Origin: Pyrobaculum sp. | GTDB lineage: Archaea; Thermoproteota; Thermoprotei; Thermoproteales; Thermoproteaceae | DNA: 32,000 nucleotides | Assembly: GCA_038832545.1 (NCBI GenBank) | Contig: JAWBJM010000002.1 | Coordinates: 1-32,000 of the forward strand | Direction of reading: 5' to 3' | Part shown: positions 16,125 through 29,941 of the stretch, in pieces | How the letters are laid out: each line of letters begins with the position of its first letter | How positions within the stretch are numbered: position 1 is the stretch's first letter | Translations under genes and position numbers: made by a program | The notes under the pieces: generated by a model | Told to the model about the DNA's origin: nothing | Seen by the model: the letters and a program-made list of their open reading frames with translations, nothing else | Database searches by the model: none

Positions 16125-16133
16125 TTTTATATA
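16125..16133 (+). promoter_or_regulatory. TATA box of the arcade (arcadin-1/crenactin) operon
   Basis: TTTTATATA is centred about 23 nt upstream of ATG 16152. Confidence 0.55.
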
Positions 16134-16151
16134 GGGAAATCTTCTTGACGT

Positions 16152-16493
16152 ATGTTATCTATACGCGGCGTAGTGGTGTCGAAACAATTGGTCTACGACC
16201 CCACCGGTGTCAAATATATTAAGATTGATATCATAGAGGAGAGAGAAATGCCGGGCCCCGTTGCCGCCTTTTCTGCACACGACGAACAAACTGCTCAGCT
16301 TGTGAGAGAAGTTATGCCGCTAGTTACTCAAATTGTAAAATCTCTACCCTTCGGCGGGGGAAAGATCTCAATACCTAGAGTCACCCTCTGGCTCACTGAC
16401 GAAGAGGTGGAAAATTTTGGAGAGATAGACGTGGGAGACACTGTGTTAATTTTGGTGGCCAACGGCGAGATTAAAATAAAGCCAGAAAGTTAA
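16152..16493 (+). CDS. rkd-1: Arcadin-1 (arcade cluster protein)
   Basis: 113-aa ORF immediately upstream of crenactin, matching the published Thermoproteales gene order rkd-1, cren-1, rkd-2, rkd-3, rkd-4. The call rests on position and size, not on a recognised domain. Confidence 0.7.
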
Positions 16494-16508
16494 AAAACAT
16501 AGACGTAG

Positions 16509-17816
<1,308 letters not shown>

Positions 17817-17819
17817 TAC

Positions 17820-18458
17820 GTGGATTTTGTAAAACTTTTAGTAACTAGATACTTCACAGACGTCTTAGGTATGAAGTATGTAGAAGAGAGAGAGAATGCG
17901 TTGTTGTTTATAGAGGGCTTTAACAAAGTGGCGGTTGGCGTATACGCCGCCGATTTTTATGAAGAGAGTGAGCTATATAAAAAAGTTGGGGCGTTGGCCG
18001 GCCTAGACGCAGTTAAAATTTATTTAGCTGTTTTGCCCAGCGCGTTGCCGTATATAGATGCTAAGTATTTTAAAAACGTCGGCGTGGGATTAGTGGTAGT
18101 AGACGTAGACAAAGGAGTCGACGGTGTCGATGTTAAAATATTCCCTAAGCCAAGGCAGACGTCTACAGCTACTATAGATACTGAAAAAGTTTTAGAAGTT
18201 TTAAGAACTCAGTTATTAAATTATATTGAGAGTCAAATTAAACGTATTGAAAATTCTCTATATGAAAAACTTAAAAACTATATAGATCAAAAAATTGCAG
18301 AGGTAAAAAAATTACTAACTGAGTCTAACCAAACTGGTGTAGAGATAAAAAGATTACAGCCTGAGTCTAGCCAAACCGGCGCGAGTCAGACATCTCAGCC
18401 TAACACACTTCTTTCAAACGACTGGGTGAGAATTTTAAGATCTAAAAGCGGCGGTTAA
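17820..18458 (+). CDS. rkd-2: Arcadin-2
   Basis: 212-aa ORF starting 3 nt after crenactin (GTG). Globular N-terminus, a coiled-coil segment, a Gln/Ser/Thr-rich linker and a short C-terminal peptide, as described for the crenactin-binding arcadin-2. Confidence 0.7.
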   Translation: MDFVKLLVTRYFTDVLGMKYVEERENALLFIEGFNKVAVGVYAADFYEESELYKKVGALAGLDAVKIYLAVLPSALPYIDAKYFKNVGVGLVVVDVDKGVDGVDVKIFPKPRQTSTATIDTEKVLEVLRTQLLNYIESQIKRIENSLYEKLKNYIDQKIAEVKKLLTESNQTGVEIKRLQPESSQTGASQTSQPNTLLSNDWVRILRSKSGG

Positions 18459-18485
18459 TATTTAAGGTAGTGAAGAAAGAGCTTT

Positions 18486-18656
18486 GTGGAGGTCCTCCTT
18501 GAAGAAGTTAGAAAAGTCTTTGGAGAGACAGAGGAGAGGAAATTAGTCGAGAAGTTAATTCTACTATATAAAGAGGGGGGGTCAAGAGCTGTTAAGACAG
18601 CTCTTGTTGAATATCTCAAAAAATTTGGCGTCGATGTGGAGGTTAAAGAAGATTGA
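18486..18656 (+). CDS. rkd-3: Arcadin-3 (56 aa): MEVLLEEVRKVFGETEERKLVEKLILLYKEGGSRAVKTALVEYLKKFGVDVEVKED
   Basis: Hand translation from GTG 18486; below the track cutoff. It lies between arcadin-2 and arcadin-4 as expected for rkd-3, and its 3-prime end overlaps the arcadin-4 start by 23 nt. Confidence 0.6.
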   Translation: MEVLLEEVRKVFGETEERKLVEKLILLYKEGGSRAVKTALVEYLKKFGVDVEVKED

Positions 18657-21012
18657 AGTTGAAAATTTTAGGTCGTATAGAGGAAGACACATTCTTGAAC
18701 TTGGCGATGTTAATATATTGTGGGGGAGGATAGGCGCTGGCAAGACTTCTATACTATACGCAATTGAATACGCTCTATTTGGTAAACAGCTAGAGGTAAA
18801 AGAAAGAGTGGCGAAACTCATCGATTTAATAAATACAGACAGCCAAGAGTTAAAAGTCTCTTTAACTTTACAAAAAGGCGGAGACACGCTTTACGTATCT
18901 CGCGTCATGGGGCGGAGAGGGTCTGAACGATTAACAATACGACTGAATAATGTAGAACTTAAGGGCAGAGACGCTGAGAAAAAACTTAAAGAGATTCTTG
19001 GTGTAGACGAAGATATATACGAACGCCTTGTGTATATATCCCATAGAACACTAGAGGGGTTTATATACGGGACTCTACAAAAAAGGGCTCTTTCAGTAGA
19101 TAGACTATTTGGAGTTGACTTAATTGACGACGTAATTAAACACATTTCGTCATTTGAAAAAATATTGATCAACCGTGCCGAAGAGCTTAGGAAAAAAATA
19201 GCCAGTTACGAAAAGTATAAAGAAATTATTAGAAAATATGGAGGCTACAGAGGTCTAATTTCCCGACTACATACACTCAGCGAAGAAATTTCTATATTGA
19301 AGGAGAAAGAGGCGGCGTTGGCGAAAAAAGTAGAGGAATTGGCCAGGGAGAGGTCGGAATATATTGAAAGATTAAAAGAAAAAGAGAGTGTGTTAATAGA
19401 ATACTACAAAACAAAGTCTGAACTTGAGTTTTTAGAGTCGAGTGTCGATAAAGAGCCTGACGTTGCTACAGTGGAGAAGATAAGAAGTGCATTAAGAGAA
19501 GTTTTGGAAGAGTATGAACATATGGTAGGTTCTGATTTTTTAGACAAGTTATCTAAAACTAACGACTTAGAGAGCTTAAGTACAATTTTAATAAATGCCT
19601 ACGAAGAAATTGTTAAATTGTCTAGAGAGATTGAGACTCAGTTGTACGACTCTAAGAAGCTATACGATCACTATACGACTAGGCTAAGGAGAGTCGAGGA
19701 CGAGATCTCAAACTTAGAGACGAAGCTACGGAGATTAGAGCCGCAGTATCAAAGATTTAAAGAGTTGCAGAAGAAGTATAAAAGTCTTGAAGATGTAAAA
19801 ACGACATTGGTAGAGATCAAAAAGAAGCTAGAGGAGTTAGAACGAGCTGTGTCTTATTCATCAGCTTTGAGGACTGTTGCACTACATGTTTTTGAAAGAG
19901 GCATCTCGACATGTCCAATATGTGGAACAATGCTGGATTCTACAGCTGTGTCTAAACTTATAGAAGAGTTAGATTCGAAGTATGGAGAGTTAGTAAAAGA
20001 GTTAGAAGACTTACGGACGAGAGTATACGAATTGGAACGGGCATTAGTCGAAATGGAGACGCTTACCAGCGACGTCTCTGAATATCTCTCAACGAAGTCA
20101 CACTTGGCGGAACTCCAGAGAGAGAGAGATGAGATAGTAAATAGAATATTGCAGCTTGAGAAGTCTATTAAACAACTTGAGCGTAGAGTAGAAAAAATAC
20201 GGCAGCTATTGGCCAAGGTAGATAGAAAAGTTATCTACGACGCTGTGTCAAAATTCGGCAAGTCTATAAGAATTCGTGAGCTTAGGCGTAGGTTAAGAGA
20301 ACTTGAGGATATTCTAAAGAAGTCGGGCGTCACGGAGGAGGTAATAAACATAGACTCAACTTGGAGAGAAACGGCTGAGGAGTTTGAAAAGATCTCCTCT
20401 AGGCTATCTGAATATTTTAGAGAGAAGATGATGCTCGAAGAAGTGGAGAGAGAGATAGGCGGCGATGTGGAGAATTTAAGAAAGGAACTCGACAACGTTT
20501 TGTACGCCTATGGCAAATTTCAAAATATTAAATCTAGGCTTGAGTTAGTGAAGATCAACACTAGGTCGCGCATGTTAGAGAGAGCTAGGGATAAATTCAA
20601 CGAGGTATTTCTCGCGCTTTATAAATACGGTGATATAGTGAAGGTAGGGGCTGATCTTGAACAACGAAAGGGCTACTACGATTTTTACGCCCTGGGGCCA
20701 GCTGGGGAGAGGTTTGGAATCTCTAAACTAAGCGACGGGCAGAGACTATCAATGGCCTTAGCACTTGCCTTGGCGCTTCGTGAGGTGTCTAACGTAGGGG
20801 TTGACTTTATTATATTTGACGAGCCAATTCCATATGTTGATGTAAATATAAGAAGAGCCTTTGTAGATCTAGTTAAGTCTTTGGCGCACAGCCGCCAGTT
20901 GATAGTTGCGACGCAATCTAGGGAATTCGCCGAGGAGATTAGAGAGGCTTTATCTATGTCTAAATTCTTTAAGATTGTAAAAGGGGAGTCCTCTAGAATA
21001 GATTTAGATTAG
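18634..21012 (+). CDS. rkd-4: Arcadin-4, SMC/Rad50-like coiled-coil ATPase
   Basis: I prefer ATG 18634 (MWRLKKIEVENFRSYRG, a typical SMC/Rad50 N-terminus) over the track TTG 18604. Walker A GRIGAGKTS, long heptad-rich middle region, central CPIC (19912-19923), signature LSDGQRLSMALALALAL, Walker B DFIIFDEP. Confidence 0.85.
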   Translation: MWRLKKIEVENFRSYRGRHILELGDVNILWGRIGAGKTSILYAIEYALFGKQLEVKERVAKLIDLINTDSQELKVSLTLQKGGDTLYVSRVMGRRGSERLTIRLNNVELKGRDAEKKLKEILGVDEDIYERLVYISHRTLEGFIYGTLQKRALSVDRLFGVDLIDDVIKHISSFEKILINRAEELRKKIASYEKYKEIIRKYGGYRGLISRLHTLSEEISILKEKEAALAKKVEELARERSEYIERLKEKESVLIEYYKTKSELEFLESSVDKEPDVATVEKIRSALREVLEEYEHMVGSDFLDKLSKTNDLESLSTILINAYEEIVKLSREIETQLYDSKKLYDHYTTRLRRVEDEISNLETKLRRLEPQYQRFKELQKKYKSLEDVKTTLVEIKKKLEELERAVSYSSALRTVALHVFERGISTCPICGTMLDSTAVSKLIEELDSKYGELVKELEDLRTRVYELERALVEMETLTSDVSEYLSTKSHLAELQRERDEIVNRILQLEKSIKQLERRVEKIRQLLAKVDRKVIYDAVSKFGKSIRIRELRRRLRELEDILKKSGVTEEVINIDSTWRETAEEFEKISSRLSEYFREKMMLEEVEREIGGDVENLRKELDNVLYAYGKFQNIKSRLELVKINTRSRMLERARDKFNEVFLALYKYGDIVKVGADLEQRKGYYDFYALGPAGERFGISKLSDGQRLSMALALALALREVSNVGVDFIIFDEPIPYVDVNIRRAFVDLVKSLAHSRQLIVATQSREFAEEIREALSMSKFFKIVKGESSRIDLD

Positions 21013-21073: not shown

Positions 21074-21811
21074 CTATTCATTTTGGTATATATACCTCGC
21101 CTTTAGCCAGAGGTGGTTAAAATAAGTCTTCGCTATGTCAATGAGAAAACGTTCGTTGGAATAAACGCCGGATAATTCGCCGCCATATTTTACATATATT
21201 AATACCGCGTCGCCAATGGCGCCGCCTCCGAACATCTCGCCGACTGTCTTGACTTGGATACGTGGAGGGAGTTCAAATTTCGAAGCTAAGTTCTCTGTAG
21301 TTAATATTCTAATGGGTATTCTCTTCGACTCTTCTATAACGACTGCGAGGAGTCTATACGAAACTAATTCTGGGAAGGGCAGGGCTAAATAAACATCGCC
21401 GTGAGACGAGACTATGACCTCCTCAGTCAAGTCTATTATCCTCTCCCCCCCTCTTATTATTGTTAGAAATGTTGGAGTTAAAACTGCGTAATTACTTTCA
21501 TATGTCATTTGTAGTGTATCAAAAAGCGGCTTTAACGACTTTAAGATGTCTGAAGTTCTGTTTACTAGTTTTTTATATACTTCTGCTGGTGGAGCAGCCC
21601 GGAATTTAACCGGCCTCTCTCTTGTGTCTATTTCCACTAGTCCTATATTTTCAAGTTTTTTTAAATAGATATATATCTTGGTATAGGGAATTTTTAAAAT
21701 TTCTGATAATTCTCTCGCAGTCAAAGCCCCCTTCTCTACCAGGGTTATATATATATTTACTTCTTTACTCCCTATGCCCAGGTTGTTGAGTACAGTTTCA
21801 ATACGCTTCAT
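21074..21811 (-). CDS. TrmB-family transcriptional regulator
   Basis: N-terminal wHTH LGIGSKEVNIYITLVEKGALTARELSEILKIPYTKIYIYLKKLENIGLVE, followed by a C-terminal effector-like domain. 245 aa. Confidence 0.8.
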   Translation of the reverse strand: MKRIETVLNNLGIGSKEVNIYITLVEKGALTARELSEILKIPYTKIYIYLKKLENIGLVEIDTRERPVKFRAAPPAEVYKKLVNRTSDILKSLKPLFDTLQMTYESNYAVLTPTFLTIIRGGERIIDLTEEVIVSSHGDVYLALPFPELVSYRLLAVVIEESKRIPIRILTTENLASKFELPPRIQVKTVGEMFGGGAIGDAVLIYVKYGGELSGVYSNERFLIDIAKTYFNHLWLKARYIYQNE

Positions 21812-21893
21812 AGAGGAGAAGTATTTGAAAGTATTTACTCTTTTCCGTTAATGAAGTTAAAAAGTATATAAATAGACTATCAAACCGTTTTTG

Positions 21894-23624
21894 ATGAGTA
21901 AACAAATAGCTATTAAGGATATAAGTAAGACAACTAAATTAGTCGATTTGTCAAAATTCAATTTACCAGATAGATATAAATCTACTTTAATGAATGAAAA
22001 ATGGCAGAGTCTTTTAAAACACCGATATGGACTACCTGAACACACGAGAGTGGTTAAATCTACTCTCTCGCTGTGTCCTGTGTGTAACGCGCGTATACCT
22101 GCAGTGGTGTATGAAGAAGGCGGCGCCATTTGGCTTAGGAAAAAATGTGATGAACACGGCGTATTTGAGGACTTATACTGGGGCGATGCCGAGATGTATT
22201 ACTACTTTTTACAGTGGGACAGGCCCGAATATATTGCGAAGGGTTTGGCAAATCCCTATACCGATTTAGAATTTTATAAAGATATGGGATCTTGTCCAGA
22301 TGGATGTGGCCTTTGTCCAGTTCATAAATCAAACACCGTCTTGGCTATTGTAGACGTGACGAATAGGTGCAATATGGCGTGTCCAGTCTGTTTTGCAAAC
22401 GCCGGAGCAGCTGGTTATGTCTACGAGCCGACTATAGAGCAGATTGAGTATATGTTGAGAACACTTAGAGCTCAGAAACCATGGGCTCCAAACGCAGTTC
22501 AGCTATCCGGCGGAGAGCCCACTCTGAGAGACGACTTGCCGGAAATTGTTAGAATTGCGCGTAGATTAGGCTTTACACATATCGAGGTAAATACTAATGG
22601 TATAAGACTCGCAAACGACATAGAGTACTACAAGGCTTTACTAGACGCTGGCATTTCTACTCTATATCTACAGTTTGACACAATTGACGAGAATAACGAA
22701 GGGGTGTGGAGACATAGACTCTACCACCCCAAGGCCTATAGGTTAATAAAAGAGAGAGTGTTGGAGAACGCGAGGAAACTTGGGCACCGCTCAATTGTCT
22801 TAGTTGTGACACTGGCGCGTAACTACAACGACAAAGACCTAGGTAAAATAATCGACGTGGCGATTAAAAATAGAGACGTGGTGAGATGGATAAATATCCA
22901 ACCGGTGAGTTTTGCAGGTAGAGCCAGGCTGTATAGTAAAGAAGAGCTTAGAAGCTATAGAATTACTATACCTGACACAATTATTGAAATAGAGAGGCAG
23001 ACTGGAGGATTGATAAGCCGTTGGGATTGGAGACCTACTAACTGGCCCGTGGCTTTGGCCAAAATGGTAGAGGTCTTGACGGACTCCCCCAGGCCTCTAT
23101 TTTCTATGAATCCCATGTGCGGCGCCGCCACTTTCATATACTATGACGAGGACGAAAAGAAGATCTACCCAATTACAAAACTCGTAGATGTCGACGTCTT
23201 TGAGAAGGGTGCTTGGGATATATATTACACTGCAGCTAAAGGAGGTCTGTTTAAACACGCAGCTAAAGTAAAGGCGCTTAAGCTAGTAAAGGCTGTAAAA
23301 CATAAAAAAGTGAAAGAGTTGATATACGACTTCTTGTTGAGAAAAGACTACGAATCGCTAGGCCGCTTCTTCTTTAACGTAGTTGGCATTGGGATTATGC
23401 ACTTTATGGATACTATGAATTACGACATAGAGAGAGTACAGCGCTGTGATATCCACTACGCGACGCCAGACGGCCGCGTATTTCCATTCTGTACATACAA
23501 TGTAGTTGGCCACAGAGAGAAAGTAGAAAGTTCCTTTAAGGTAGATTCAAAGACGTGGACAAAGATAACAGGTCTGTCGCTCACTGGGTGGAATAGGACC
23601 AAATTTGTAGAATTTAAGACCTAA
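21894..23624 (+). CDS. Radical SAM protein of the MJ0619 / Tes (GDGT-MAS, tetraether lipid synthase) type
   Basis: N-terminal Cys motif LCPVCNARIP...CDEHG, a second Cys motif CPDGCGLCPVH, the rSAM motif NRCNMACPVC (from 22368), GGEPTLR, and a long C-terminal domain. The ATG at 21894 lies about 26 nt downstream of AAAGTATATAAATA (21861-21874). The rSAM call is secure; the Tes assignment comes from recalled family architecture only. Confidence 0.6.
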   Translation: MSKQIAIKDISKTTKLVDLSKFNLPDRYKSTLMNEKWQSLLKHRYGLPEHTRVVKSTLSLCPVCNARIPAVVYEEGGAIWLRKKCDEHGVFEDLYWGDAEMYYYFLQWDRPEYIAKGLANPYTDLEFYKDMGSCPDGCGLCPVHKSNTVLAIVDVTNRCNMACPVCFANAGAAGYVYEPTIEQIEYMLRTLRAQKPWAPNAVQLSGGEPTLRDDLPEIVRIARRLGFTHIEVNTNGIRLANDIEYYKALLDAGISTLYLQFDTIDENNEGVWRHRLYHPKAYRLIKERVLENARKLGHRSIVLVVTLARNYNDKDLGKIIDVAIKNRDVVRWINIQPVSFAGRARLYSKEELRSYRITIPDTIIEIERQTGGLISRWDWRPTNWPVALAKMVEVLTDSPRPLFSMNPMCGAATFIYYDEDEKKIYPITKLVDVDVFEKGAWDIYYTAAKGGLFKHAAKVKALKLVKAVKHKKVKELIYDFLLRKDYESLGRFFFNVVGIGIMHFMDTMNYDIERVQRCDIHYATPDGRVFPFCTYNVVGHREKVESSFKVDSKTWTKITGLSLTGWNRTKFVEFKT

Positions 23625-25425
23625 GTTTTAAGAGAATTATCACAAGGCCTGCTAATAACGGGATTACCAACAAACCCGCTAGGTTTTGAATATCGTTAGT
23701 CTGTAAATCTTTTCTCTCTACATATCTGGGCGTTGGTATTGTTGTATTTTTCATAGCTACTGGCAATTCAACATAGTACTGGACCTCTACTCTTGAAACA
23801 TTTACAGTTCTGTAATATTTTTCTATTACCTCTTTCTGAAGTTTTAAATTTTCAATTTCTCTTCTTAAAGTATCGCTGAAGTTTAATACAATCGACTGCA
23901 GTCCTCCCACTCTAGGTAATGTCTCTAGCTGTTGTCTACGGAAGGCCTCTAGATCGTCGGCTGATCGAAGAAGTGTAATACCTACATTTTTCAATATGTT
24001 GGAGGCGTTGGCCAATGGAGTTAATAACTTTAATACATCTTCTCCAACTATATACAGTTGTCTAGCGAGTTGGTATAAATTACTTGATGCATTTGCTAAA
24101 ATAATCGGCATCTCATTTTTCAACACGGTAGCGTTTTGCCTTGTCGAAGCCGCTGTGGAGTTAAGAAGTGGGGCTATCTCACCTAGACTTTTTTGTGTCG
24201 ATCGTAGTGTAGACGACGTGGCTTCAAGAGCCGAAATCGCCGCGTCTAGAGTACTTATTAAAACATCAACGGTGTTCTTTAACGTCCGTAATTGTATGAC
24301 TACATTATCTATGGCCTGGTCTACAACAGCCGTTACGTTATTTGGAAGAAGTCTTGTAATATCTTTTGTTTTATGAACCTCGTATATTGTCTTATCAATT
24401 CGTTGACTAATTTGTATTAAGTCTCTTCTTATCTGTAACAGCGCCTCTTTATTTTTCACAACAGCTCGATCTGCTTCTTGTGCCGCGTTCTTATATGACA
24501 CCAACGCGGCGGATTGGGTCTCGAGTATATTAGCCGCAGTTATTAACGCCACGTATTGGTAATCCAATAGTAGAAGACTTTGGTTTATTACGCGGGCTAC
24601 TGTTTCTGCCGCGTTTCCCAGAGCAAGTATTTGTCTTCTGAGGGCCTCTAAGGCGTATGCCGACATATTAACGCCGTCTGCCCCTTGTAATAATGCCGAA
24701 CCTGTTAGTCTAAAGATTTGTATAAGTTGTGTTAAATTATTAATTTGTCTATATACAATATCTGTAAATTGTGTCATAGCAGCGCTGAGATTTGACGTAT
24801 ATAAATAGGCGGATCTAAAATTTTCAATCTGCTTTTCAATATTTCTCACTGTCTGGTTTAGTTCTAGTGCAGAGGTGATTACAATAGTGGGTAGTCTAGT
24901 CGCTCCGAAGCTCCCAAACCTCTTAATTTTTAAACTAAGTTCAAAAGTTGATGAGTCCTCTACTAAAATTGTCCAGTAATAGACCCTCATTCCAGATATC
25001 TGTGAAATTGATGTAGGAGGTGTGTCGAAGAGAACAGCTATGTTATCGTCTATGCTTATAGACACTATTACCGGCACGGCTATCTTGAGGAGTGAGGTGA
25101 ATCTAAAGCTTATTCTCACTAAGCTAGACTCATCTGCGTAAAGGATCTCTCTATCTAATGTGGCGTTTACAAAGTCTATAGACAAATCAATTTTTATAAA
25201 GGGCGGGTAAATGTTCTGTACTTCTTTCTCTATCGTTATAGCAGTATAAGGAGGCACGACGACGCCCGAGACTTCTACAGCATGAGGCCCTTTGTTGATA
25301 ATTAACTCTCTAGTCATTGTCGTAAGAATTGTGTCTCCCCACGGCTTTGTAGTATATGTCATAACTACTGTAGTACTGGCTGCTAGAAGTTGGACAATGA
25401 GAAGTGCTAACAAGAGGTACTTCAT
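23614..25425 (-). CDS. Extracytoplasmic, membrane-anchored helical protein (603 aa) with many N-x-S/T sequons; last gene of the FtsX/ABC operon
   Basis: N-terminal signal/anchor MKYLLLALLIVQLLAAS. The first ~190 aa look beta-rich. About 350 aa are helical and Ala/Leu/Gln/Asn-rich, with more than ten N-x-S/T sites. C-terminal TM LAGLLVIPLLAGLVIILL. Its start overlaps the ATPase stop by 4 nt. Confidence 0.75.
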   Translation of the reverse strand: MKYLLLALLIVQLLAASTTVVMTYTTKPWGDTILTTMTRELIINKGPHAVEVSGVVVPPYTAITIEKEVQNIYPPFIKIDLSIDFVNATLDREILYADESSLVRISFRFTSLLKIAVPVIVSISIDDNIAVLFDTPPTSISQISGMRVYYWTILVEDSSTFELSLKIKRFGSFGATRLPTIVITSALELNQTVRNIEKQIENFRSAYLYTSNLSAAMTQFTDIVYRQINNLTQLIQIFRLTGSALLQGADGVNMSAYALEALRRQILALGNAAETVARVINQSLLLLDYQYVALITAANILETQSAALVSYKNAAQEADRAVVKNKEALLQIRRDLIQISQRIDKTIYEVHKTKDITRLLPNNVTAVVDQAIDNVVIQLRTLKNTVDVLISTLDAAISALEATSSTLRSTQKSLGEIAPLLNSTAASTRQNATVLKNEMPIILANASSNLYQLARQLYIVGEDVLKLLTPLANASNILKNVGITLLRSADDLEAFRRQQLETLPRVGGLQSIVLNFSDTLRREIENLKLQKEVIEKYYRTVNVSRVEVQYYVELPVAMKNTTIPTPRYVERKDLQTNDIQNLAGLLVIPLLAGLVIILLKLRS

Positions 25426-26183
25426 ATACCTAACAACTCATCTATGTGTTTAATTTTTTCATAAGACTCAAGAGCTTTTTCAAAATCTACTTTAACCGCT
25501 CTACGAGGAGGCTCTCCACTTTCGTAAATACGGCCGCCGCGGATATACACTATCCTATTTGCTATCTGCACCACGTCTAAGTCATGGGTGGCTATAAAGA
25601 CTGTAGTTTTGAAAAACTTATTCACAGCAGCTATCAACCCCAGTACAATAGATACGTTGTCTATATCTATATTTGAGGTGGGCTCGTCGAGAGCTAGTAC
25701 GGGCGGATTAGTTGCTAAAGCTCTTGCAACTGCCACACGTTGTTGCATACCCCCCGACATTTGATGTGGGTATAGCTTACCCATCTTCTCCAAGCCTACG
25801 AATTCTAATAAAACACGTGCCTTTGCTAAAGCAAGCTCTTTTTTAATACCAAGTGCTAGCAACGGCAGTGCTATGTTTTGTTCAGCTGTGAGATACGGAA
25901 TTAGATTATAGCTTTGGAAGAGATATCCAATATTCCTCAGTCTAAATCTTTCCAGTTTTTTCTCAGACATCTTAGTCACGTCGACGCCTAAGATCCGAAC
26001 CTCGCCGCTAGTGGGCCTATCTAACGTGGCAATTATATTGAGTAATGTAGTTTTCCCAGAACCCGAAGGCCCCATGATGACGACTGTCTCTCCACGGCTT
26101 ATAGATAGCGATATATGCTCTAGAGCTACGACTCTCACCGTGCCGTTGTAGATCTTTGTCACGTCGACTAACTCTACCGCCAT
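25422..26183 (-). CDS. ABC transporter ATP-binding protein (MacB/LolD-like)
   Basis: Walker A GPSGSGKTT, Q-loop, signature MSGGMQQRVAVARAL, Walker B VLALDEPTS, H-loop ATHD. Confidence 0.92.
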   Translation of the reverse strand: MAVELVDVTKIYNGTVRVVALEHISLSISRGETVVIMGPSGSGKTTLLNIIATLDRPTSGEVRILGVDVTKMSEKKLERFRLRNIGYLFQSYNLIPYLTAEQNIALPLLALGIKKELALAKARVLLEFVGLEKMGKLYPHQMSGGMQQRVAVARALATNPPVLALDEPTSNIDIDNVSIVLGLIAAVNKFFKTTVFIATHDLDVVQIANRIVYIRGGRIYESGEPPRRAVKVDFEKALESYEKIKHIDELLGI

Positions 26184-27295
26184 AGTTGTAGTACCTCAAG
26201 TGGCCTTAACTTGGCCAGTCTATAAAGCGGTGCTAGAGAGCCAATTAACGCCACGGCGAGCGATATGCCCAGCCCTTGCGCTATATATGACTGTTTGAAA
26301 TATATGGGGACGTTGAAATCTATCCCCATGCTGGTTAAAATATCTCTTACTATCTGCGCTCCGTAGAAGCCCACGAGGAGTCCAATTAAGCCGCCTATGA
26401 GAGCTATTATAAGAACTTCGAGTACTACTGACAGCACTATCTCTCTAGCCGATATACCAATCGCCTTTAATAATCCAAATTCTCTCAATCTCTCTCTGGC
26501 GGTTATCGACATCACTGAGAAGGTAGTCAAAGCGGCGGCTGTTAGAGCCGTCCCGCTGATTATAGAAAATACTGTATTTAAGGCGCTAAAGACTTGCGAC
26601 ACTGCCTTAAGCAGACTTTCTTGTGTGTATACTTGCGCCTCTCTATACGTATCTTTTAGTACGTAGTAAAACGCCACGGCGTCGGATTTATCTTTCATAG
26701 TGATGAGAATTGCATTTACAAAAGGACCGGTACCTAAGCTATCTTGTAACCAGTCTAGGGGGACTACGACAAGGTTTAGTCTAAAGGCTCCTACGAAGCC
26801 CTTTAGGAAACTACGCATCACCCCCACTACCTTAACTCTTAGCGTCTTTTCACCGCCGTATCCCAGGTAGACCTTTATTGAGAGGACCTCACCTGGTCTT
26901 ACGGCCAGGGACTCCTCCACTACTGCCTCGCCTGGCGCAATTGGGAGTCTTCCCTCTCTTAAGTCAATTGCAAAGTAGTCAATTTCTCTAAGCGGCACGC
27001 CAATTATAGACACTATTGTCCCGTTATATATACCAGTCATAATGATAATACCCTCTGCGTTTTCCACTTGTGGAATCTTCCTAATCGATTCAACAAGCTG
27101 GGTGGGAATATTTATAGACTCGGAGTATATCATTAAGTCGGCGGGGTACACTCTGTATAGCATCTGCTCTACGTACAACTTCGTGGCGTCGCTAACCGCC
27201 GTCAACGCTATCGTCAAAGCCACGCCTACTGTAATAGCCAGCGTGGCTAATAAATAACGGACATATCTAGCTTTGAAATCTCCCGCCGCCAGCAT
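26174..27295 (-). CDS. ABC transporter permease, FtsX/MacB-type
   Basis: N-terminal TM, a ~200-aa extracytoplasmic domain, then a C-terminal FtsX-type 3-TM bundle (RERLREFGLLKAIGISAREIV...). I prefer ATG 27295 (MLAAGDFKARY...) over the track start at 27346, which would cross the divergent promoter. Confidence 0.85.
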   Translation of the reverse strand: MLAAGDFKARYVRYLLATLAITVGVALTIALTAVSDATKLYVEQMLYRVYPADLMIYSESINIPTQLVESIRKIPQVENAEGIIIMTGIYNGTIVSIIGVPLREIDYFAIDLREGRLPIAPGEAVVEESLAVRPGEVLSIKVYLGYGGEKTLRVKVVGVMRSFLKGFVGAFRLNLVVVPLDWLQDSLGTGPFVNAILITMKDKSDAVAFYYVLKDTYREAQVYTQESLLKAVSQVFSALNTVFSIISGTALTAAALTTFSVMSITARERLREFGLLKAIGISAREIVLSVVLEVLIIALIGGLIGLLVGFYGAQIVRDILTSMGIDFNVPIYFKQSYIAQGLGISLAVALIGSLAPLYRLAKLRPLEVLQLWR

Positions 27296-27379
27296 AACAA
27301 CATGATGCACAGAAAAACCCCCTGGCGAGTTTAAATTCTTTTGCAAAAAAGTAAAAAACCTAAAGACGTTAGCTCTGGA

Positions 27380-29941
27380 GTGAAGAAATACATAGCCGTG
27401 GCCTTTGTAGTGTTGGCCTCTTTTATTTACCTAGCTCTTTACTCTAATCAAGTTTTTAACTATCTAGTATACGACGAAGGAGAACTAATGCCGCCGAATT
27501 CGGAGCTAAAATTAGTTGAAAAAATTATTTCGTCTAATTCCACAAATCTTAAAGAAGTGCCAGTTTTGATATACGGCCCGGGAGTAGAGGCGAAGGCCAG
27601 ACTTCTCTCTAGTCTATACCCAGACTCAATTACGCCGTGGAGTATCTTAGACAAAGCCATAGACTTATATCAAAAGAAGGTGGAGGAGATTGTAGATAAT
27701 TATACAAATATATTTATCAATACTACAACGTTGATCGTAGATGAGACATCAAGACTTTGTACAGAGTTGGAGCGTTTAGCTGAGGCCTATAGAGAGGCTA
27801 AGAGATATGCAGAGTTTTTAATCTTAGCTACGTACGGCATAGCTGCGTCTGGGTCGGCTATTGATAATAAAACCGAGAGGTTTTTAACACTATATAGACA
27901 ATATCTTGAACAATACGATATAGATACTGCTGTGAGAAAGGCAGCTGATATAGCGTATGGCAATGTATCTAAATTTTTAAAAAATGTAAATTGGCGCAAC
28001 TGGGCCTCTGTATCTACAGTTGAGAAAATTGTTGAAGAAATACTACTAGATAAATTAAATAAGACATTAATAGATCTTGCAAGAGAAGTAGATAAACTAG
28101 GTGTTGAACAATATATGTATATATCAATTCTTAATAAAACACCGCCTGGGCTAAGGCCTTATTTACCATATTTAGTATGTGGCGGCGATGTGCAAAAAGT
28201 AGCTGCCATATTTAGGGCAGAGTTGTTGAAAAACATTACGTCTAGATTTCCGCCGCCTAATCTATATACATTACAAGAAGCCGCTATGTTTGTGAGAAAT
28301 AATACTTACGTCTTGGCGTTGGTTAGGTCTGAAAACACTCCCGCAGTCCCCCGAGATATTGGCATAGCTGTGTCCACTGAGACACTTCTAAAAAGCTTTA
28401 CTGAAGTGGTTACTGAAGATGTTTCAAAGATAGACAAAGCTACGGCATTAGCCATGTTCGTCGTATTGTTGTATGTAATGGGGACGTTGCTCACACCTCT
28501 TTTAATAATTTCAACAGTTGGGTTGACATATCTATCTACTCTGGGGTTTTTCTACCAGATACACAGTATTCAGCCGATCTACTATCTGGTTGTATACATG
28601 TCGGCGCCTGTTATATTCGCAATAGGAGTAGATTATATGTTATTAATGGCTAGTAGATACGCAGAGGAACGTGCAAGAGGCTTAAGTAGAGACGAGGCGG
28701 TGAAGTCTGTCAGGGCGTATGCAAACAGGGCAATTGCGGCTAGTGCGGCAGTTGTAGCAACTGCGTTGGGCTCATTCGCCTTGTCTCACCTCCCATTTAT
28801 GCAATCTATAGGTGTGGGTTATTTAATCACAACTGCTTTTATCACAGCCGCTGTGTTTTTTATATTTCCTATGTATTTAACACTTCTAGGCGATAGGATA
28901 TTCTGGCCGAAAAAAACCTTGGCTACCCATGGGGGAAGGTCGCGGATGTTAGAGAAGGCTGTAGACACCGCTTTGAGAAAGCCGCTTATTATTGTTATAG
29001 CTTCCGCCTTAGTGACTCTAGTCTCTTTTCTATTTTTATTAACTACGCTTCAAATCACGGCAAATCCCGTAGTCGCCATGCCGGAGACAGAGGAGAAGAA
29101 GGCTTTGGAGATATTGTCTAGATACTTCGCAGATATTTCAGCTATCTCGAAGACATACGTCGTTATGAAATCAGAGCCATCTACTTCTCTACTAAACGAG
29201 ATAGAGAAGTTGCCGCATTTCGTTAACTATACGGTATACAATAGGGGTGAGTGGCACGTCGTCGAGATTAAACTCTCAGTCGAAGACACATCAGACGCCC
29301 TACTTGATGTATACAAAAGACTTGACGAGTTAAGAGTTGAGTTTGGAGAGTTTTTAATAGGCGGCGCAGCGGCGTGGAAACATATAATATTTGAAGAGAT
29401 CTATGTAAAATTCTGGAATTTCCAAGTATTTGTTGTAATACTCGCAGTATACCTCATCTTGATGTTTTTATTAAAAAGTTTTATAATACCGGCGAGGCTT
29501 CTCATAACAGTATTTATGTCAATTAGTTGGAGCCTTGCGCTAGAGGTGTTGATATTTCAAGAGATTATGGCTACGCCTACGTATTGGTTAGTCCCCATTA
29601 TTCTATTCTCTTTCCTATTAGCCATAGGCACAGACTATGACATTTTTATAGTGGCTCGTATAAAAGAAGAATTAGAAAAAGGACTTGATGAGAAGGAGGC
29701 CATTAGACGTGCTATTGTGTCCACGGGGCCTGTTATAACAGGTGCGGCTATAATTTTAGCAGTTGCATTTTCTACACTTTTGACATCTCAACTATCTCTA
29801 TTACAACAGGCTGGTTTTACAATTGCTATCGCAGCTTTGATAGACGCCTTTATAATAAGGCCTTTGGTAGTACCTGCGTTTATGGTAGTCGCTGGTAGGT
29901 ACAATTGGTTTTGGTTTGATAATATTTTAAAAAATAAATAA
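27380..29941 (+). CDS. MMPL / RND-superfamily exporter with a large helical N-terminal extracytoplasmic domain
   Basis: Duplicated MMPL core motifs GVDYMLLMASRYAEE and GTDYDIFIVARIKEE, each within a 6-TM bundle. The first loop of ~330 aa is helical and rich in N-x-S/T. The GTG 27380 start (MKKYIAVAFVVL...) is preferred; the alternative is TTG 27341. Confidence 0.85.
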   Translation: MKKYIAVAFVVLASFIYLALYSNQVFNYLVYDEGELMPPNSELKLVEKIISSNSTNLKEVPVLIYGPGVEAKARLLSSLYPDSITPWSILDKAIDLYQKKVEEIVDNYTNIFINTTTLIVDETSRLCTELERLAEAYREAKRYAEFLILATYGIAASGSAIDNKTERFLTLYRQYLEQYDIDTAVRKAADIAYGNVSKFLKNVNWRNWASVSTVEKIVEEILLDKLNKTLIDLAREVDKLGVEQYMYISILNKTPPGLRPYLPYLVCGGDVQKVAAIFRAELLKNITSRFPPPNLYTLQEAAMFVRNNTYVLALVRSENTPAVPRDIGIAVSTETLLKSFTEVVTEDVSKIDKATALAMFVVLLYVMGTLLTPLLIISTVGLTYLSTLGFFYQIHSIQPIYYLVVYMSAPVIFAIGVDYMLLMASRYAEERARGLSRDEAVKSVRAYANRAIAASAAVVATALGSFALSHLPFMQSIGVGYLITTAFITAAVFFIFPMYLTLLGDRIFWPKKTLATHGGRSRMLEKAVDTALRKPLIIVIASALVTLVSFLFLLTTLQITANPVVAMPETEEKKALEILSRYFADISAISKTYVVMKSEPSTSLLNEIEKLPHFVNYTVYNRGEWHVVEIKLSVEDTSDALLDVYKRLDELRVEFGEFLIGGAAAWKHIIFEEIYVKFWNFQVFVVILAVYLILMFLLKSFIIPARLLITVFMSISWSLALEVLIFQEIMATPTYWLVPIILFSFLLAIGTDYDIFIVARIKEELEKGLDEKEAIRRAIVSTGPVITGAAIILAVAFSTLLTSQLSLLQQAGFTIAIAALIDAFIIRPLVVPAFMVVAGRYNWFWFDNILKNK

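Follow-up and report, generated by a model that had tools for sequence, protein, structure and literature searches.

A candidate extracytoplasmic partner of a MacB-type ABC system in Pyrobaculum, linked to its transporter across Thermoproteota

ABC (ATP-binding cassette) systems of type VII are understood through the partners with which they work outside the cytoplasm, namely MacA-TolC, LolA, EnvC and TesA, and to our knowledge all partners described for this class are bacterial. Here we analyzed a 32,000-nucleotide stretch from the genome of a hot-spring archaeon, Pyrobaculum sp. (assembly GCA_038832545.1, contig JAWBJM010000002.1, positions 1 to 32,000 of the forward strand; hereafter the window), in which the genes of a MacB-type permease, its ATPase and a 603-amino-acid protein (P0001) follow one another on the minus strand and diverge from the gene of an MMPL-family transporter. 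The three-gene chain resembles Spr0693-0694-0695 (PDB 5XU1, PMC5768738) and YknXYZ of B. subtilis, which likewise combine a MacB-type permease, a separate ATPase and a membrane-anchored partner made of beta domains and one or more long alpha-helical hairpins pointing away from the membrane, in hosts without an outer membrane. It also resembles YbbAP-TesA of E. coli (PMC12646458), in which a type VII ABC transporter works with a dedicated protein outside the cytoplasm and for which the removal of hydrophobic compounds from the membrane has been proposed; TesA, however, is a small soluble hydrolase, whereas no catalytic domain can be recognised in the archaeal protein. From the conservation of its gene linkage across Thermoproteota, we consider it highly likely that the MacB-type ABC system has a dedicated partner in the 603-amino-acid protein encoded beside it.

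The permease matches Pfam profiles PF12704 (MacB_PCD; residues 32-223, E-value 3.1e-16, 60.7 bits for a cut-off of 27) and PF02687 (FtsX; E-value 1.7e-19, 70.5 bits for a cut-off of 25.5), and has four transmembrane (TM) helices with a MacB_PCD ectodomain of ~200 amino acids between TM1 and TM2. Its nearest solved relatives in a search of PDB sequences were Spr0695 (the best match), MacB, LolC and YtrF. The ATPase matches ABC_tran of Pfam (E-value 4.6e-36); its top NCBIfam matches were LolD, DevA, FtsE and MacB, all under the equivalog cut-offs, and its PDB relatives were MJ0796, MacB, LolD, BceA and YbbA. The four-helix FtsX membrane module, the MacB_PCD ectodomain and the cognate ATPase of the LolD/MacB/FtsE group alongside place the pair, at the level of profile matches, firmly in the MacB/LolCDE/FtsEX class (type VII ABC). 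An earlier note made on the letters of this DNA had read the three minus-strand genes as translationally coupled, and the coordinates of the open reading frames bear out the overlaps that it gave, of 10 nt between permease and ATPase (26174-26183) and of 4 nt between ATPase and 603-amino-acid protein (25422-25425).

We detected the P0001 family with a profile of close homologues in 27 of the 28 genomes of the same family as the window (Thermoproteaceae, f1 hereafter); in distant lineages this profile matched only the region of the beta domain described below (residues ~54-274). Gene maps of twelve distant matches placed the partner gene right after an ATPase gene of the window's type wherever the contig allowed, and these neighbouring ATPases matched that of the window with E-values of 1e-50 to 1e-73 at every examined locus on such contigs. 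An alignment of 22 distant members (A4), which detects strong matches including the N-terminus across the class, was then used to cross partner coordinates with the positions of permeases of the window's type. The partner was found ~2 kb from such an FtsX gene, on the same strand, in all f1 genomes and, where the contig allowed, in all other genomes of the class with a strong partner match outside a second family, f3 (G016, G017, G019, G021, G023, G027, G028 with two copies, G029, G030, G031, G033, G034, G035, G039, G041, G045 and G051-G058), the exception being a second copy of ~720-730 amino acids in G018/G019 that has no FtsX or ATPase gene beside it. In f3 the permease orthologue lies elsewhere as an orphan with no ATPase nearby while ATPase and partner are still adjacent, a distribution that points to a single ancestral split. 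Outside the class, a phylum-wide sample contained further families carrying the P0001 family, and all 7 of the 7 loci mapped there, spanning five families, had permease, ATPase and partner together; metagenomic contigs show the same linkage.

In every lineage examined the partner is encoded beside the ATPase and usually near the permease as well; these lineages cover at least 12 families of the class, together with several further classes of Thermoproteota. The genes occur in four arrangements, including one with the partner divergent from the permease and ATPase genes (L041) and one with it convergent (L046), and no other neighbour was conserved around the trio in the loci mapped. A linkage that survives these rearrangements, with no other neighbour conserved, is what would be expected of the subunits of one system. 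The earlier note had named beforehand a lack of co-occurrence with FtsX and ABC genes as the result that would speak against a partnership, and the linkage came through that test strongly. A profile search with alignment A1 against 1.84 billion representatives retrieved ~30 true clusters of the family, further matches being generic coiled-coil proteins, and a word-based search with A4 added almost no new members. The same note held that such a partner was undescribed for archaeal MacB-type systems; in agreement with this, we found no description of one in the searchable literature, and no mention there of PAE2280-2285.

Searches of Pfam, NCBIfam and PDB sequences gave no family match for the 603-amino-acid protein, and neither its profile nor its single sequence matched an adaptor in the PDB. 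In translation it begins with a Sec-type signal peptide and ends in a single C-terminal hydrophobic helix; the N-terminus is hydrophobic in all family members and a C-terminal hydrophobic segment is present in most of those scanned. Ala, Leu, Gln and Asn together make up 40% of residues 189-541, and the protein carries 14 N-x-S/T sequons, compared with 5.1 +/- 2.0 in shuffled sequences. Of these 14, 13 recur in 17 or more of the 21 homologues. Because the sequon excess is nearly all conserved and comes with a signal peptide and a C-terminal TM helix, the sequence argues strongly for an extracytoplasmic protein with a C-terminal membrane anchor that is a candidate for N-glycosylation.

An AlphaFold2 (AF2) model built on 21 homologues (predicted local distance difference test, pLDDT, 75; predicted template modelling score, pTM, 0.46) gives the N-terminal beta domain a pLDDT of 80-93, with W151 invariant in alignment A3, followed by four long helices (189-282, 287-357, 362-434 and 439-541). 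The short strands after the last helix are modelled as rejoining the beta domain, the linker that leads to the TM helix is of low confidence, and the model as a whole places the beta domain beside the membrane anchor with the helices folding back. The architecture read in the earlier note (an N-terminal signal, ~350 helical residues, a C-terminal TM helix and more than ten sequons) therefore stands, with the beta domain as an addition. Foldseek searches of the model against the PDB returned only generic elongated helical proteins, namely bundles of the ClyA family and hairpins of chemoreceptors. Superposition on the ClyA pore protomer gives a root-mean-square deviation (rmsd) of ~7 A across 291 columns; for the chemoreceptor hairpins the rmsd is ~59 A. 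Because ClyA superposes and the chemoreceptor hairpins do not, we took the helical region as a folded bundle of ~14 nm, a choice between four-helix bundle and single hairpin that was made on these superposition statistics alone. Since the breaks between helices, at 283-286 and 435-438, stand in register, the protein may instead form one hairpin of ~25 nm with a hinge at mid-height.

The earlier note compared this protein with the MacA/HlyD-like adaptors of bacterial MacB-type pumps, and as a relationship by descent the comparison fails. We rejected homology to MacA/HlyD on the absence of any Pfam, NCBIfam or PDB sequence match, with no adaptor among the best Foldseek matches; the lipoyl and beta-barrel (HlyD_D23-type) domains of membrane-fusion proteins are missing, and the anchor is at the C-terminus, not at the N-terminus. 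Compared with Spr0693-type adaptors, the protein thus belongs outside the membrane-fusion family, carries a C-terminal TM helix after a signal peptide that looks cleavable where the adaptors have an N-terminal TM helix, is heavily decorated with sequons, and has four helices of ~70-100 residues where they have one hairpin of ~56 A. In function, by analogy, the trio would nevertheless resemble the MacA/Spr0693-type adaptor systems of single-membrane bacteria, with an unrelated fold; in its own system Spr0693 stimulates ATPase activity. Among other labels attached to homologues, the MCE/MlaD identity given by JGI names to some of them was discarded (no MCE domain, and only sub-threshold matches to the helical Mce4_CUP1); the JGI labels 'MlaD' and 'chromosome segregation ATPase' and the Pfam labels 'HmpF', 'CCDC39' and 'Cytadherence_Hmw2' are coiled-coil noise, faint in the case of the Pfam labels.

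The reading that we prefer, at about even odds, is that the trio forms a type VII ABC system of three components in which a non-homologous protein serves as accessory stalk or adaptor. Under this reading the 603-amino-acid protein would bind the transporter, with the beta domain, close to the membrane, and the helix bases sitting on or beside the permease ectodomain, and its stalk (~14 nm as modelled, at most ~25 nm as one hairpin) would project into the space below the surface layer (S-layer). In Pyrobaculum this layer is a single Ig-rich protein of 292 kDa that anchors itself through its C-terminus and reaches out to ~37 nm from the membrane (bioRxiv 10.64898/2026.08.21.746120). ATP hydrolysis in the cytoplasm would move the permease ectodomain by mechanotransmission, and the partner would act as an adaptor or stalk that passes a substrate from the outer face of the membrane outward, through or along its length; candidate substrates are a hydrophobic molecule, a lipid or a peptide. 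There are precedents for a partner reaching far from the membrane in Spr0693-0694-0695, whose adaptor hexamer extends to ~154 A from it (PMC5768738), and for a type VII ABC system with an outside partner in YbbAP-TesA (PMC12646458). Several points weigh against this accessory-stalk reading: the absence of any sequence or fold similarity to MacA/HlyD; a monomeric bundle that is self-contained as modelled, with no sign of a tube-forming oligomer; a stalk that even at 25 nm falls short of the S-layer surface at ~37 nm; a model of moderate confidence that leaves folded bundle and long hairpin undecided; and no substrate-related genes conserved near the trio in the loci mapped.

The conservation profile of the partner counts in favour of the accessory-stalk reading and also of its main rival, which is mechanotransduction in the manner of FtsEX-EnvC. 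Within Thermoproteaceae, conservation peaks at helical segments 226-315 and 406-445 and reaches 0.92 at residues 286-300, in neither the beta domain nor the anchor, which suggests, from alignment, an interaction surface on the helices. An ABC complex that grips such a segment could switch the conformation of the 603-amino-acid protein and control S-layer insertion, remodelling or division without moving any substrate. We regard this as rather unlikely, although the linkage evidence applies to it equally, the conserved segments lie around the two in-register breaks and would fit a gripped or hinged element, and among the best Foldseek matches are the ClyA family and similar helical proteins, known for changing their conformation on a large scale. 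FtsEX is moreover a type VII ABC system that acts on long antiparallel helices outside the cytoplasm, binding its partners EnvC, PcsB, CwlO and RipC through coiled coils and doing its work there with no requirement for substrate movement. In contrast to those partners, the 603-amino-acid protein is membrane-anchored and has no peptidoglycan hydrolase or activator domain (no LytM, CHAP or NlpC/P60 domain in Pfam and NCBIfam scans of P0001 and 14 homologues), and the permease ectodomain matches MacB_PCD over ~190 residues and is not a small FtsX-type loop. Archaea of the host's group are without peptidoglycan. If the stalk stands upright, with the C-terminal anchor beside the beta domain, the conserved helices would also be far from the permease. 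A bolder form of the accessory-stalk reading, which we hold to be unlikely, makes the trio an independently evolved archaeal envelope-spanning machine, in which the motor would drive the stalk between a ~14-nm bundle and a ~25-nm hairpin at the two in-register breaks, forming a conduit or pushing on the underside of the S-layer and so linking cytoplasmic ATP hydrolysis with export, or with the dynamics of the S-layer, over the broad pseudo-periplasm of Thermoproteota.

The order of domains in the partner (signal peptide, beta domain, long helices, C-terminal TM helix, dense sequons) also resembles that of SlaB-type stalks. SlaB of Sulfolobus (PDB 8QOX) has a signal peptide, one or more beta-sandwich domains, a long helical region and a C-terminal TM helix and is N-glycosylated, and the 603-amino-acid protein could accordingly be an independent surface glycoprotein, a SlaB-like stalk or an adhesin, that does no more than share a transcript with the ABC genes or is the cargo handled by the ABC system. 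We judge this improbable. The match to 8QOX is weak and covers generic coiled coil only; SlaB is encoded with slaA, beside a separate lattice protein, and the lattice is carried by the trimeric coiled-coil stalk that SlaB forms, whereas the P0001 gene has ABC genes as neighbours in all lineages, and in the AF2 model its helices fold back so that the beta domain is next to the anchor. Co-transcription alone would leave unexplained a linkage that is kept across classes and through rearrangements, and the self-anchored 292-kDa S-layer of Pyrobaculum needs no separate stalk, which makes a role as S-layer protein or stalk unlikely (bioRxiv 10.64898/2026.08.21.746120).

The divergent gene encodes an MMPL-family resistance-nodulation-division (RND) transporter, with Pfam PF03176 matching in two stretches (E-value 2.2e-70) and an AF2 model of the twelve-helix RND fold, with two extracytoplasmic loops, whose top Foldseek matches are MmpL3, MmpL4 and MmpL5 (E-values 1e-17 to 1e-15). 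It contains 10 sequons, compared with 3.5 +/- 1.7 in shuffled sequences, and nine of the ten are in loop 1, which AF2 models as largely helical with a confident all-alpha insert of ~230 amino acids (one 72-residue helix and eight short ones); the earlier note was right to call this loop helical and rich in sequons. The likeness that it saw between this ectodomain and that of the 603-amino-acid protein did not hold up, as BLASTP detects no sequence similarity between the helices of P0001 and the MMPL ectodomain, and the insert is not a long coiled-coil stalk. The transporter shares the MMPL-family RND fold with mycobacterial MmpL3/4/5, of which MmpL4 and MmpL5, like MmpL10, carry helical insertions in the periplasmic domain; here, unlike in MmpL4/5, the insert is all-alpha and in loop 1, not a coiled-coil tube in loop 2, and no MmpS-like gene was seen nearby.

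Orthologues of the MMPL gene were found in 27 of the 28 f1 genomes and 22 of the 31 f3 genomes, with weak partial matches only elsewhere, which restricts it to Thermoproteales. It is divergently adjacent to the trio in 26 of the 27 f1 genomes that carry it, the exception being a Pyrobaculum genome (G098) where it lies 45 kb away. It also adjoins the ABC genes in genus g9 of f3, where it stays beside the ATPase-partner pair even though the permease has moved away, and does not in g6 or g8; the matched region in f3 starts at residue ~231-263, which means that the sequence of the helical insert is not conserved there. Given an orthologue that occurs in Thermoproteales only, and not always beside the trio, the MMPL gene is, on gene distribution, a frequent lineage-specific neighbour in one order and not a component of the conserved trio. 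The proposal of the earlier note, that the four genes form one co-regulated module, is accordingly weakly supported: adjacency speaks for it in Thermoproteaceae and in one genus of the second family, while the trio is widespread without MMPL. A single export or envelope-assembly machine in Thermoproteales, in which the helical protein would serve both transporters, seems very unlikely to us, even with adjacency in f1 and g9, predicted promoters set back to back within 69-84 nt, a sequon-rich helical loop 1, and the example of MmpL4, MmpL5 and MmpL10, which use helical extensions across the mycobacterial periplasm. Besides the points of distribution and adjacency just given, the two ectodomains share no sequence similarity, the insert varies even in f3, and no shared operator is evident.

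The intergenic region depends on the choice of start codons (Table 1). Homologues of the permease align from residue 11-13 onward, and its start is most likely GTG 27310 (or ATG 27295). The MMPL gene most likely starts at GTG 27380, because a 98%-identical database protein has 853 amino acids and this GTG is conserved across species; the 866 amino acids given in the earlier note correspond to the longer listed frame. With these permease starts the intergenic region is 69-84 nt; the divergent layout described before thus remains and its length of ~85 nt is revised. Two TATA-like elements were read there: positions 27330-27337 hold TTTAAATT, and positions 27345-27359 hold an A-rich box. They lie ~24-27 nt from GTG 27310 and GTG 27380 respectively, spacings at which leaderless transcripts could begin at GTG 27310 on the minus strand and at GTG 27380 on the plus strand. 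Boxes of this kind occur at equivalent positions in other Pyrobaculum genomes, and we predict that the region acts as a divergent promoter. No conserved operator was found in it: across 17 aligned Pyrobaculum intergenic regions only the TATA-like boxes and the conserved GTG stand out.

Table 1. Features of the trio and its divergent neighbour in the window, and positions of proteins encoded near the trio or near related systems at other loci
Feature	Position	Strand	Remarks
MacB/FtsX-type (type VII) ABC permease	26174..27310	-	Likely start GTG 27310 or ATG 27295; listed open reading frame 26174-27346 reaches TTG 27346
ABC ATPase, 253 aa, LolD/MacB/FtsE group	25422..26183	-	10-nt overlap with permease gene
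603-aa accessory glycoprotein candidate (P0001)	23614..25425	-	Start overlaps ATPase stop by 4 nt
P0001 Sec-type signal peptide, residues 1-18	25372..25425	-	Read from translation
P0001 beta-rich domain, residues 19-188	24862..25371	-	AF2 model, alignment A3
P0001 helical region, residues 189-541	23803..24861	-	AF2 DSSP
P0001 C-terminal part: beta strands 545-559, linker 560-586, TM 587-602, short basic tail	23617..23802	-	AF2
Predicted divergent promoter region	27311..27379	.	Two back-to-back TATA-like elements, read from sequence
MMPL-family RND transporter, 853 aa from GTG 27380 (most likely start)	27380..29941	+	Pfam MMPL, AF2, Foldseek; listed open reading frame 27341-29941
~160-aa soluble protein	L041:7904-8392; L044:7804-8280; L031:9921-10409; L028:6858-7346		
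Bitopic 516-770-aa proteins (signal/anchor, C-terminal TM)	L036:3015-5887; L040:859-4331; L047:10062-11612		Weak CARDB or Ig-like matches

Several further observations were made on the partner and its relatives. Outside Thermoproteales, most partners carry a charged, helix-like cytoplasmic tail of 25-40 residues after the C-terminal TM helix (L029, L030, L031, L032, L041-L044, L046-L048 and L051, compared with window positions 23617-23667), and in their ATPases the part that follows the LSGG signature is longer by ~10-40 residues than in the Pyrobaculum ATPase; neither feature is present in Thermoproteales. This hints at a contact of the tail with the ATPase in the cytoplasm, in a pattern that is confounded by phylogeny. 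A soluble protein of ~160 amino acids (41-68% identity, no Pfam family) is encoded directly after the partner gene in several lineages outside Thermoproteales; its N-terminus, by eye, we take to be ribbon-helix-helix-like, and the window's own genome has only a weak match to it. In a second, paralogous FtsX/ATPase system of f3 genomes, and also at one out-of-class locus, a bitopic protein of 516-770 amino acids adjoins the permease. Surface partners of this bitopic kind may be common to archaeal MacB-type systems in general. At another out-of-class locus (L050:2-3022, minus strand), a multi-TM protein of ~1007 amino acids with a C-terminal FtsX domain (E-value 2e-11) diverges from the trio. 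One in-frame stop (TAG, TAA or TGA) falls inside the six-frame matches of the partner in G110, G114, G115 and G117 and of the permease in G092, G109, G114 and G117, which are several genomes of genus g2 and one Pyrobaculum; the open frames are full-length, and these stops are probably match edges that run past the start codon.

On its other side in the window the trio neighbours a Zn-ribbon radical SAM gene with a TrmB regulator (21074-23624) and, beyond it, a crenactin/arcadin cluster (16125-21012), in an order that is the same in P. aerophilum. A link of the trio to the convergent radical SAM gene was discarded, as this gene adjoins the trio in none of the 12 distant loci and the synteny is local.

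The census across the phylum, the rearranged arrangements, the split in f3, the limited distribution of MMPL and the conservation profile of the helices are new here. They describe an unannotated family, without a Pfam or NCBIfam model, whose linkage to a transporter is conserved over several classes of Thermoproteota, and which very probably represents a new kind of outside partner for this class of transporters. With three defined components the trio is small enough to be directly testable, and it is a concrete candidate for moving material or force between membrane and S-layer across a wide pseudo-periplasm (~37 nm in Pyrobaculum).

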